Below are positions 40,740-45,197 of a DNA stretch of 64,000 nt, piece by piece. Made by a program: the position numbers and the translations under genes. This DNA comes from Pocillopora damicornis (Eukaryota). Each line of letters begins with the position of its first letter. Positions within the stretch are counted from its first letter, which is position 1. The stretch covers positions 248,001 to 312,000 of the forward strand of contig NW_020843402.1 in NCBI RefSeq assembly GCF_003704095.1, given 5' to 3'. The notes beneath the pieces are model-generated. The model ran no database searches. It was given only the letters and a program-made list of their open reading frames with translations, and was not told the origin of the DNA.

Positions 40740-41842
40740 CTGGAATAAAATTCCCTCAAGTTATGGTCCACCAAACCACAGTTAAGATGGTGCCACTGAG
40801 CTGTCTTGGTATATACTTCATATAAAAACAGTGACTGAAAATATCGTTCGTGTATGCTGCAGTCAATTATGACCACTAATGACCAATCAACACAGTTTAG
40901 AGGAAGTCTCTAGCAGGTACAGCCATCCACACTGCAGATAGCTGAATGACTTGAATATACTACAGACAGCGTAGATACTATTATGTACTGTAAAATATCG
41001 TGAATACTCTTATCTGCTGTAGACATTTTAGATAGCTGAAACTTATCTAGGTGGTGTGGACAGCTTTATACACCGAGGTACACCTTACCCAGTGTCGATA
41101 GTTGTACGAATTGTTTACGATTTAGATTACTAAACCAAAGACGTCTCTACGAAACCGATTCGTGAGACTTATTGCTATGATTCCGATCGTCGTGAAAATA
41201 AGAACAGGCGTAATATCTTTGCTGCTTTTCAGACGAACGGAGGCAGAAGCGAGGAACATTCTGTGAATAAATAAACGGAGAAACGACTTGCCTATTTCCC
41301 CCTTTTTTTTTTACAACAGAAAGAAAAACAGTATTAAAGTTCACGTGGCAGAAAAATATTTTATTCACCTATCTTAAACTACTGTCATAAACTGAATTTA
41401 CATACACCCCGCGCAAGATTTTTGACATATATTCATGAATCTATTGATTCTTTGAAAGAAAGCGAATCTATAATTGTAAAGCAATATTCTAAGCTCAAAG
41501 GAGTAGTTTAACCAGCCCGGGGCTGAACTTAGCTAAGCTGATACAAACAGAAAAGAAATACACTTAAGATCAAGTTAGTATCACCCCCTTTCCAGTAGGA
41601 TTTAAATTTTTCAAAATGGAAGATCTCGATGTAGTTGTCACACAACTTCTGTTTTATAAACAATGACAAATGACCCCTACTGACAATTTGATTCTTCTGT
41701 TAAATACCTTAAGCAAACATTCAAGACACGAAAAATAACATGCAAACTTTAAGTTTTTGGGCTTAAATTATCTCAGAGGTCACAATAAGAGAGGCATATG
41801 AAGCGCAAACTTGAACTAAACACCAAATCCCACCGCCATCGA

Positions 41843-44800
41843 ATGGAGCCCAAACTAAGCATCATCGCTTCCTTGATCCTTTTATTGTTATTTTTAAACC
41901 AGTCACAATTGATAATCGCGAAGAGTCCGTCTCGTAAGACACAGCCAACCAAGCATGGAGAGGTGTACCGCGCAAAGAGTCAGATCGATTCTCTGATTTA
42001 CAAATTAACACTCGATTTAAACACCTCTAATGAAAAGAAAAATCTAGCCAACGTCATGCAAAAAGATGCCGAAAAATTATCTCGAATTGCCGAAGATGAA
42101 ATCGCCTTATTGAAACCAGTGCAGCGTCTTTTGGATCAACTAGTGAAGGGAAATGCTTCAGGTGGAAATCAAAGCTGTTTTTGCGGCATTCGTGGTGGTA
42201 AAACAGCAATAAACATTGCGACAAAAAGCTCTCCTCTGCCTAAACATTACACTATAACTGTACAAGGTAAGTAAAAAATTTAATTCCTCAAATCGTGCCA
42301 TATCATCAAATAAATCATCTGTATTATATCCGTTTAAAAGTTTTGGACTCGGTGATACAACAGTAAGTTGGTTGATCCAGAAACTTTCGACATCAGATAC
42401 CGAAACTTTAATTTATTATTTTTAGTTATTCTAGATACATTATCTCTATAAATTGTTAAATTGCAGCTCTTAAATGTTACCATTCCAAATTTCAGTATTT
42501 TGAATGAACTTCACTTCGAGTTTAGCACGATCTCAAATACGGTCTAGTAGCGATTTTCTAATCACAAAAAAATATTTATCTTTTTTCGATGAAGATTGCT
42601 TGAGTATTGAGAGGGTTGAGAATGCTGTTGAGTCCCAAATCATAAAATATTATCATGACTTTTCAGTTAATCCTTTAACTCCCATGAGTGACCAAGACAG
42701 AATTTCTCCTAACAATATCAATCAGATAAGGGGTGAGAGTAAAGAAAAATATAAATTTGGGGATAATTAGTTGATCCCATACTAAATTCTTAGAACTAAC
42801 ACTATAAGAATTGTATAGTTGACAGTAAGGAGAATTACAAATTGAATCTGGGAGTTAGAGGGTTAAAGTCAAAATTTCACCTGCACGTGTGGGTTGGTTA
42901 TGATTTCCGAAATACAAAGGGGTTACGATTTTTAAAAACAATGAAATCCAATAAATTTCTTAAGGGGGTCAGCAGTACGGCTTAAGGACTGATGAATCTT
43001 GAAATACCGTTCAAAACTGAAACCATTTTTCGACCTTTCGGTGACTGATTTCTTGTGCAGGTAAATAGGTCAATAGAAAGAAGACCTTATTTTTCATCGA
43101 AACCTTCTAAAAGAGAAATATTGTACAAATTGATTTTGTTGGCATTAAACTTTGGCTTTGTTTTGAATTGGTCTCCAGTTAACCATCGTGCACTGATTGA
43201 TCGAGGATTAACACGTGACAATGGAGATGACCTACAAGTCTACTACCATGCTAACGGACAGCAACCGGTTCAAATAGACCGTGTTCTTAGTGGTGTGGGG
43301 ACAAAGTCAGCCACAGTCCACTTTAGACTGCAGGCTCGTATGTCAGCCAACACCATTGATGATATCTCTTACTCTTTAATGCTTGGTGATGCAGTCAGCG
43401 GAAGTGTTATGGATAACCCTAGACGGGTGTATGCGTTTTATGATGATTTCACGAGCCCTGCCCTAAAGAAGGACTGGGTGAAGAACAATTACGGCAAATG
43501 GACTGTGCAAAATGGACGGTTGCTTGGCGATACCATGGCTATTAAGGGAAGAGATTATATAGAGGTCGCATTGTATCTCAAGTCGGGATTTTCTTGGAGA
43601 GATATTGAAGTGGAGCTTGACATGATGGAGACTGGGAGTAGAAAAAGTTGTCCTGGACCACTGTTGCGTGTGGCCAATGTTCAACACAGTAAGACCACAG
43701 CGTGGTGGTTTGAGTACTGTCCATATAACACTTTTACCTGTACGTTAAGGCCTCAACGCAATAACAAAGATGGTGGCTGGAAATACAACAGCAAACTGTC
43801 CAGAGCCTTTGCGCTTCATACTTGGTTTCATTTTAAGTACCAAGTGCTTGGCGACCGATTCTCACAATGGCAGGATGGTAAACTCGTACATAACAATGTA
43901 AAAGTCAGCAATGATTGGAACATACCGGGTGGAACGTTTGGCCTGGGTTGTCACACTTCTCCAAACAACTGTAAAACAATCTATGACAACATTAAAATCA
44001 GATTCCTGGTTGCTGGTCCTCCAAATATCACTCTCGGAAACTTTGAACCCATTCGTCTCAGTCAAACCAGTATCCTGGGTACAAAGAACCTTCCCGCTGA
44101 CTCCTGCAAACAAATTCATGATGCAAGTCTAGCAAATAACAAACCGCGCGTCAAGAATGGAGTTTACTGGATAAAGACTGATCTGCAAGGAAGCTCTTTA
44201 GTGCAGACTTACTGTGACATGGCCAATGGAGGCTGGACTCTTGTGGGAAAGATCAGTGGCAAAGTTGGCAACATCTACAAGACTTGGCTTGTGTCTAACC
44301 ACAACACTGCAGCACTGAAAACTCCAAAAATCACTAAACATAAAGATTTTGGCTGCATGGATGCTCGCAGTCTGGCTGTTGAAGCAGCTTCCACGATTCT
44401 GTTGTCCAGTGGCGAGAGGACGGATGGCTTGGGAAGCAAGTGGGTTATGTGGAGACTGCCGGGAAACAGAGAAAAAGAAAAGTTCTGGAATCATGCTATT
44501 GGTAAATCCGCTGTGCAGGAGGCCGTTGTGACACCTGTACTGGTGCATGCATGGAATGGAAACAAAAAGGTACCTAAGAACGCCTTTTATTTTAAACTGT
44601 TTTAAAGGAGTTTTATTCACAGCAGCTTTGGTCTTGAATTAGACGTGTGTCCTTAGAATACACAAAACACGCATCAGGTGAAGTTTTCTGCCGTAGAACT
44701 CTCCAAAAATTTCCACCGTAATCAATATTTCGAGAAAATGGAAGATACGGCAGCAGTTTGTCTCAGTCGTTTAATTCTGTTGAGTTATTAGTTATAAGAC

Positions 44801-45197
44801 TGACATAATCCGTTAAGCTCGTCTTTGAAATTGTCATAGGTTTTAACAAAAGGCGTTGGTAAAAGAAGCTTGGAGCCCTAAATTGTACCACAACCTATTC
44901 ATCACTCTGAGCTTTCAATTTTCTTTCTATTGTCCATAGATCTGTTATCAAAACGAGTTTGGGATAATGCCTTATTCTCTTCATGGAGGATCGTATCCCT
45001 ACACGTCTCTCAAACACGGAGGCGGAATTTTGGCTGTGAACGACTACTGTATGGCTGTGGGTGTCAACACTAAGGGTTCTCTGGCGCACGGCTGGAGAAA
45101 TAATGGCTATGCTAACGATTGTCCAAGCAGCGATTCTGATTGGCCCAACAAGTCGTACAAACACGGTTCCCCTTATCTGACGGTGTGGCTCAAGTGA
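41843..45197 (+). CDS. Secreted ~690 aa protein: signal peptide, coiled coil, DUF2341-like domain, ConA/DUF1080-like beta-sandwich, fibrinogen/intelectin-like YCDM..GGWT domain (exons 41843-42266, 43179-44569, 44940-45197)
   Basis: Signal peptide MEPKLSIIASLILLLLFL. Phase-matched GT-AG introns. Motifs TRDNGDDLQVYY...ATVHFRL...VYAFYDDF, GKWTVQNGRL...IYDNIKIR and SCKQI...NGVYWI...QTYCDMANGGWTLVGK. An upstream in-frame ATG lies at 41798. Confidence 0.82.
42667..42866. mobile_element. MITE with TTAA ends and imperfect TIRs (piggyBac-like non-autonomous), ~200 bp
   Basis: ttaatcctttaactccca ... tgggagttagagggttaa. A related degenerate copy lies at ~53503-53706. Confidence 0.7.

Follow-up and report, generated by a model that had tools for sequence, protein, structure and literature searches.

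The question raised by this locus is how a reef coral comes to make a protein whose two heads both look bacterial. The window is a stretch of 64,000 nucleotides from Pocillopora damicornis (NCBI RefSeq assembly GCF_003704095.1, contig NW_020843402.1, positions 248,001 to 312,000 of the forward strand), and all gene positions below are counted within it. The gene of interest has three exons on the plus strand and encodes 690 amino acids (aa) from 41843. Judging by its sequence, the protein is ordered as a predicted signal peptide, a coiled coil, a module made of a DUF2341 sandwich and a ConA-type jelly roll, and a C-domain of 245 aa. The surprise is that both heads, the module and the C-domain, appear to go back to a single type of bacterial surface protein and seem to be common to corals and a calcareous sponge. 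We give about an even chance to the interpretation that both heads were acquired from bacterial surface-fibre adhesins before calcareous sponges and anthozoans split, and that the protein is now, as predicted, a non-enzymatic glycan binder.

Domain organisation of the protein

We start with the module. On exon 2 the DUF2341 profile (PF10102) gives 15.3 bits (E 0.028) and does not reach its gathering cut-off of 23.4 bits; 8 of 19 family members match it at E<=0.05, the best with E 6.9e-6. The top ESM Atlas cluster is 97% DUF2341 (score 0.94), and with the family profile as the query, prokaryote proteins annotated as DUF2341 come up at E<1e-30. Taken over these matches, the family is homologous to DUF2341 proteins across the whole domain. 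The ConA part is matched on exon 2 by PF06439, the DUF1080-type ConA fold, with 30.6 bits, over the cut-off of 26.8. A preliminary description of this DNA had named a prokaryote-type DUF2341 and ConA module, to be checked by profiles. The module is borne out by PF06439, by DUF2341 at the family level, by the Atlas cluster and by the prokaryote matches; in the profile check itself ConA is over its cut-off, and DUF2341 is under its cut-off in the single copy and matches the 8 members mentioned.

For the fold we use a model of the Oculina homologue, the nearest named one (76% identity), with a mean predicted local distance difference test (pLDDT) score of 54.6 and module-region blocks from 36 to 91. 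The ConA domain of this model compares with the lectin domain of galactocerebrosidase at Z 16.8 (root mean square deviation 3.3, 177 aligned) and with CBM66 at Z 16.5 (3.4, 160 aligned), and glycoside hydrolases and legume-type lectins score just behind. The modelled jelly roll is what the protein would share with these domains and with the DUF1080/PF06439 lyases (Z 14.9 to BT3469); unlike in the DUF1080 lyases, an Asn and a Gln position are replaced, and the ConA domain sits in the DUF2341 module of a multi-domain protein. In a trimer prediction the coil scores 0.22 against a mark of 0.32, which carries no weight either way.

The C-domain (residues 447-690) starts with a YCDxxxxGGGW head that matches the NCBIfam model NF040941 at 38.6 bits, against a cut-off of 30; this model spans 46 residues only. 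The head (SCK...GxYWI...YCDM..GGWTLV) also matches intelectin-1 with E 2.7e-7, and an N-terminal SCK...YCD..GGW subdomain of the kind found in fibrinogen-related domains (FReDs) and intelectins is present. The intelectin and FReD matches cover positions 8-70 of 247 and, unlike in the FReD lectins themselves, the match stops near position 62-70; all 27 PDB matches fall inside profile positions 4-70. The remaining ~180 residues have no solved chain at E<=1 and no profile match in the libraries searched, and Pfam Fibrinogen_C matches none of the 19 family members at E<=0.05. A low-confidence model of a bacterial C-domain (mean pLDDT 54) has a best structural Z of 3.0, and FReDs head its Foldseek list with E 0.08 at best; a model of this quality assigns no fold and is no sign of a new one. 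By full-length homology, as far as the searches reach, the C-domain is outside the FReD/intelectin family, with only its first ~55 residues matching. The fibrinogen/intelectin-like domain of the preliminary description thus shrinks to these first ~55 residues, and the whole domain has bacterial relatives. Elsewhere in the Pocillopora damicornis genome, at least 8 short YCDxxGGW-head matches are clustered on one contig (G000:C4283, L042-L046) and make up a separate expanded family.

Relatives outside animals

The next question is where the two heads occur outside animals. Searching 1.84 billion representative proteins with the module profile gives 1118 matches at E<=0.001, and the best 150, which are listed, comprise by identity 44 anthozoan-like, 3 Sycon-like and 103 other proteins. 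The best whole-module matches outside animals among these 150 are P0131 and P0132 (E 3e-52), annotated as Deltaproteobacteria and Myxococcota; the genomes of both, together with a third genome, belong to the same phylum sample. The two have the motif set YPG..R / TT.WW.E / MRP..N.D / H in common with the corals, and in these two and six other near rows the module positions shared with the corals are P/G at YPG, R, WW.E, R(P), D, W and H. Fifteen of the 103 other top matches were examined, and all 7 that carry an organism name are prokaryotes.

DUF2341 surface proteins are proposed as pilus-tip adhesins in two reports (PMC4858521; PMC11809585). As in the prokaryotic proteins, DUF2341 leads into D/E-D-F and then a ConA-type jelly roll; unlike them, the coral protein has a gene with introns, a coiled-coil stalk, added Cys and the C-domain, and there is no pilin context.

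The entire C-domain is found in G149, a genome of the Myxococcota phylum, with E 6e-64 in a search of 301 genomes of the phylum, and both heads look prokaryote-type because the C-domain has such close bacterial relatives along its whole length. The G149 domain is 39% identical to the coral protein, and the bacterial relatives overall are 36-46% identical. Its carrier is a 1124-aa protein with three YCDxxxxGGGW heads and the C-domain last, on a contig with ordinary bacterial-looking genes. A metagenome scan for the C-domain confirms 53 loci, of which 51 are coral-like with 39-46% guanine plus cytosine (GC), and the contigs L047 and L048, with 68-70% GC, hold the same C-domain without the module. 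The likeness to NF040941 bacterial proteins therefore lies in the cut-off passed and in the full-length 245-aa subtype common to G149, L047 and L048; for the rest of this subtype, beyond the stretch that the NF040941 model covers, the libraries searched contain neither a matching profile nor a solved relative.

P0132 and the G149 carrier have a common N-terminal domain (E 4e-11). Against NF053851, the N-domain of the mosaic adhesive trimer (MAT) of Bdellovibrio, P0132 reaches 26.1 bits and P0143 23.1 bits, short of the cut-off of 60. MAT fibres carry varied C-terminal binding heads, one MAT binding prey glycans (PMC10769870). The coral protein is like MAT in its stalk with exchangeable C-terminal heads, and the two bacterial carriers match the MAT N-domain weakly; it is unlike MAT in being an animal protein without that N-domain, and the carriers, at 26 and 23 bits, lie far under 60. 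On contig C16 of G149, three tandem genes of 866-1124 aa (L035:6919-16332) have a common N-terminal domain and YCDxxxxGGGW-type heads; this is a predicted fibre-like adhesin cluster of the Myxococcota-phylum genome.

The same module subtype is seen in P0206, P0297 and P0150, where it sits on a Cys-rich protein with a coiled coil and is followed by a LamG domain. We take these to resemble dinoflagellate (protist) proteins, and they are possibly a separate transfer into a protist. In P0198 the subtype sits at the end of a protein whose N-terminus resembles, we presume, a marine myovirus structural protein; P0198 has no PHROG match, and its layout hints that phages may carry this head. In IMG/VR, none of 80 pattern matches to the module and none of 34 to the C-domain is confirmed, and GenBank phages give no match. 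A search for longer fused forms over 1387-3960 aa returns 4 DUF2341 giants only, two of them named archaea.

Distribution in animals

We now consider the animals. A homologue search gives 148 matches, and all 17 organism-named proteins among the 120 listed are from anthozoans, both stony corals and octocorals; the carriers named among these are Oculina, Montipora, Acropora, Porites, Paramuricea and Dendronephthya. Oculina and Montipora have several family copies on one contig. The full fusion is also found in protein P0274 of the calcareous sponge Sycon ciliatum, and its Sycon-like relatives P0130 and P0136 have the whole architecture. With P0130 as the query, 7995 best candidates were scored and 3 proteins returned. 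Among the best 150 module matches, the C-domain occurs in anthozoan-like and Sycon-like proteins only. Because the fusion is common to a calcareous sponge and anthozoans, any transfer would be very old. The gene is not specific to corals, since octocorals and Sycon ciliatum have the fusion too; the preliminary description's expectation of a patchy and not a broad distribution holds, the named carriers being anthozoans and Sycon only.

The sponge-like and anthozoan copies share the Cys in a GLGC motif and a second Cys downstream, and the nearest prokaryote rows are without both. Genomic open reading frames (ORFs) break at the position of intron 2 in all 14 anthozoan-like proteins displayed. The Sycon-like P0130 and P0270 are single ORFs of 779 aa on contigs of 0.6-1.7 Mb, therefore both anthozoan introns appear to be missing from them, and we infer that these introns were gained later in anthozoans.

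The family has been counted before. In Ying et al. (PMC6214176, Table 2 and S14) DUF2341 is given as a domain of robust corals only: Fungia has 3, Goniastrea has 1, and the other six species, two anemones among them, have 0. Since Acropora and Montipora carry the family, the threshold used probably produced this restriction, and on the same ground the zeros of the anemones carry little weight. As far as those tables go, this corrects the published domain census, the DUF2341 family being in Acropora and Montipora too. In the literature searched, this Pfam table entry is the only description of the family. Table 1 of PMC4878875, a list of 41 genes transferred into anthozoans, has no recognisable entry for it, though any of three entries given only as 'predicted' or 'hypothetical protein' might still be this gene. 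In nine coral-like metagenome copies (L065, L068, L070, L072, L078, L086, L090, L091, L097) the coding sequence is split over frames or stops; they may be pseudogenes or assembly errors and are consistent with paralogue turnover.

Phylogeny of the two heads

For the module, 187 rows are reduced to 83 by a 72% identity filter, and trees are built from 71, 48 and 32 rows after near-duplicates and long branches are dropped. The anthozoan-like and Sycon-like modules form one clade in all of them, with a Shimodaira-Hasegawa-like approximate likelihood ratio support (SH-aLRT) of 99 for 71 rows and values of 99/99 for 48 and 99/97 for 32. In approximately unbiased (AU) tests, for which the groups were picked after the trees were seen, a grouping of corals with Myxococcota without the sponges is rejected (p-AU 0.01), as is one of animals with a DPANN pair (p 0.010), and a grouping of animals with Myxococcota is not rejected (p-AU 0.375). 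The C-domain tree of 21 rows separates bacteria (99/97), sponge-like (98/97) and anthozoan (95/92) proteins into monophyletic groups. The phylogeny proposed for each domain in the preliminary description yields a single animal module clade, with no supported sister group that would place it inside or outside a prokaryote donor group.

Proposed function

What might the protein do? The design resembles that of a stalk-and-head lectin, and the known kinds it recalls are the secreted lectin-like protein and the transferred bacterial module. Intelectins, ficolins and FReD lectins have a stalk-plus-head design, and ficolins and collectins oligomerise through the stalk. The coral protein is like them in being predicted to be secreted and in its SCK...YCDM..GGWTLV head. 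It probably binds glycans on microbes or on cell surfaces without acting as an enzyme; the preliminary description had proposed a use in mucus, immunity or symbiosis. Once secreted, it would oligomerise via the predicted coiled coil, by analogy with these stalks, and bind glycans on the concave face of the ConA domain, at a putative site formed from P300, G301, R305, W317/W318, E320, R332, P333, D339 and H400. The variable loops beside the conserved ConA residues may tune specificity among paralogues.

All regions are under purifying selection, with a ratio of nonsynonymous to synonymous rates (dN/dS) of 0.07-0.17 over 28 pairs of 8 sequences, 0.07 being that of the coiled coil, and dN is highest in ConA. 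Positive selection is not shown by these pairs, in which the mean dN/dS stays within the same range. Across 80 homologues, 24 of the 185 ConA columns are hypervariable, whereas DUF2341 has 3 such columns in 90 and the C-domain has 2 in 158. Those of ConA cluster at residues 265-268, 295-297, 323-330, 341-345, 385-391 and 401-404, and the near-invariant P300, G301, R305, W318, R332, P333 and D339 adjoin these clusters in sequence.

Origin of the two heads

If both heads came from bacterial surface-fibre adhesins, their donor would have been a Myxococcota-like bacterium. The transfer would have been followed by patchy retention, the gene being lost or undetected in other animals, and the predicted coiled-coil stalk would carry the DUF2341-ConA module and the YCDxxGGW-type C-domain as two heads. 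A number of results weigh against this history. No bacterial protein with both heads fused is found among 401 genomes of the phylum, the module matches and the metagenome scan, and both heads are rare there, with the whole module in 3 and the whole C-domain in 1 of the 401 genomes. The module trees are unrooted and offer no supported sister group for the animals, and the best 32-row tree weakly pairs them (51/55) with the protist-like P0150 and P0206. Because the C-domain tree has no root either, that domain may have passed from animal to bacterium. Other named animal groups are not seen among the listed homologues, an absence that amounts to 'not seen' only, because most matches are unnamed and 28 of the 148 are not displayed. 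The sponge and coral coiled coils are no more similar than shuffles. Sponge-like copies are without much of the conserved motif set, His included, which makes a common ligand for sponge and coral copies doubtful. On the functional side, the ConA fold resembles enzymes too, at similar Z, and three different queries find the 690-aa gene as a single copy in the Pocillopora damicornis genome, with no further copies.

One can go further and suppose that a predatory Myxococcota-type bacterium supplied an early animal with an adhesin that already had both heads, that the animal added the coiled-coil stalk, that the protein still serves corals and calcareous sponges as a microbe-recognition lectin that is diversifying, and that the C-domain is an undescribed ligand-binding domain from a bacterial pool of YCDxxxxGGGW heads; this fuller account seems to us possible but rather doubtful. 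Were it true, the pool may bear on the origin of animal fibrinogen-type lectins.

Other histories have to be weighed. It is unlikely, in our view, that only the DUF2341-ConA part is prokaryotic and that the C-domain is an offshoot of animal fibrinogen/COLFI later taken up by a few Myxococcota-type bacteria. The head does resemble intelectin, angiopoietin and collagen C-propeptides over ~55 residues, at least 22 other Pocillopora damicornis loci have a short C-domain-type head, and the scarcity of the whole C-domain in the phylum and the missing fused donor among the bacteria searched fit this history as well. Against it, the three bacterial C-domains, 50-63% identical to one another, form a deep clade of their own that lies inside neither the corals nor the sponges; YCDxxxxGGGW heads are plentiful in Myxococcota-type bacteria, with 15 short matches in genome G001 and three per protein in G149; and in the animals seen the whole C-domain occurs only within the DUF2341-ConA fusion. 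Separate gains by calcareous sponges and anthozoans, through two transfers of pre-fused heads from one unsampled bacterial lineage or through one transfer and then passage from animal to animal, would account for the other animal groups not seen among the listed matches, for the apparent lack of both anthozoan introns in P0130 and P0270, and for coils that are not demonstrably homologous. We find this distinctly unlikely: the animal modules are one clade between whose members the sampled bacteria cannot be placed, and the two Cys missing from the nearest prokaryote rows are shared by the sponge-like and anthozoan copies. That the module is an old eukaryote gene from protist ancestors, with many losses and no transfer near the animal origin, is improbable. 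It would draw on P0150, P0206 and P0297, which we assume to be protist-like and which carry the same subtype and group weakly with the animals, yet that grouping is without support, P0150 and P0206 lack the C-domain, and the named rows examined among the other top matches were prokaryotes throughout.

Two further alternatives concern what the protein is for. Stony corals, octocorals and calcareous sponges are calcifying groups, and every organism-named animal carrier belongs to one of them, so that a skeletal organic-matrix protein, kept because these animals deposit calcium carbonate, might be proposed. We judge it very improbable. Family peptides or domain names are not found in supplements of four coral skeleton-proteome papers and of the Sycon biomineralisation paper, a weak point as these files may contain no sequences, and in both paralogue lines some branches lie deeper than the stony corals and may belong to hexacorals that do not calcify. 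An active 3-keto-glycoside lyase or hydratase of the DUF1080 type, in place of a binding module, is very improbable indeed, even though PF06439 is over its cut-off and H400 lines up with the His of the LQxH motif of DUF1080 and is retained in 24 of 31 anthozoan-like rows and in 8 of 8 nearest non-animal rows. Such enzymes need a partner oxidoreductase, and Glu103, Asn134, Glu164, Gln166, Tyr190, Lys245, Gln273 and His275 are the conserved active-site set of BT2 (BT2157-type), according to bioRxiv 10.1101/2024.03.25.586180. Mapped through a weak alignment with BT3469 (4jqt), this set appears incomplete, with Pro at the NSG Asn position (Asn134), Gly at the QxH Gln position (Gln273) and the His kept; in the sponge-like rows that cover the position, the His is gone in 3 of 3.

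If the acquisition of both heads from bacterial adhesins holds, surface-binding modules would have passed from bacteria to animals very long ago, and a sponge class and anthozoans would share them. Reef corals would have in this undescribed family a set of candidate recognition proteins that vary in copy number, have hypervariable loops and might bind symbionts, bacteria or mucus, and DUF2341, so far a proposed adhesin domain, would gain a tractable animal system.

The gene and its surroundings

The coordinates of the gene and its domains are collected in Table 1. RNA contigs skip both introns exactly in all 4 runs examined, which come from 4 studies. Exons of WBP4 (E 1.5e-8) and UTP18 (E 6e-17), both on the minus strand, adjoin the gene. 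Three more contigs, two of them other coral transcripts, also join it to UTP18 sequence. Contamination is ruled out because the introns are spliced in RNA and host genes flank the locus; introns, splicing and neighbours together are those of a transferred gene integrated in its host. The preliminary description had likewise seen an animal gene, not contamination, between WBP4 and UTP18, with a spliced protein of 690 aa and most of the module in an exon of ~1.4 kb. The motifs that it quoted do lie in one spliced frame of a gene with spliceosomal introns; its span of 42180..45197 is right at the end and wrong at the start, the gene beginning ~340 bp further upstream. An alternative in-frame ATG at 41798 would give 705 aa.

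Table 1. Positions of exons, introns and predicted domains of the coral gene in the window
Feature	Position	Strand	Remarks
Exon 1, coding part	41843..42266	+	predicted signal peptide, coiled coil, first DUF2341 sandwich strands
Predicted signal peptide, ~residues 1-25	41843..41917	+	hydropathy scan, hydrophobic core 5-19; homologues' hydrophobic N-termini align
Predicted coiled-coil stalk, ~residues 35-110	41945..42172	+	single long helix, residues 37-101, in the Oculina homologue model
Intron 1, 912 bp	42267..43178	+	GT-AG; contains a 200-bp repeat at 42667-42866 resembling a miniature inverted-repeat transposable element (MITE)
Exon 2, 1391 bp	43179..44569	+	bulk of DUF2341, ConA domain, first two thirds of C-domain
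DUF2341 (PF10102) match	43226..43507	+	under curated cut-off in the Pocillopora copy
ConA-type jelly roll, residues 233-416	43451..44002	+	PGP..R / WW.E / RP..N.D / GCH motifs kept; hypervariable loops
C-domain part 1	44093..44569	+	YCDxxxxGGW head, NF040941 match ~44102-44245, then family-specific stretch
Intron 2, 370 bp	44570..44939	+	GT-AG; spliced in RNA contigs
Exon 3, coding part	44940..45197	+	second part of the C-domain (85 aa; identity to the bacterial G149 domain 46%); stop codon

The MITE-like element of intron 1 has terminal inverted repeats of 18 nt that start with TTAA, presumably piggyBac-type ends, and its summed depth in RNA contigs is very high. Over 41200-41843 the gene stands head-to-head with WBP4, and one RNA contig that reaches into exon 1 already starts at 41500 or earlier, which makes a long or a shared 5' region possible.

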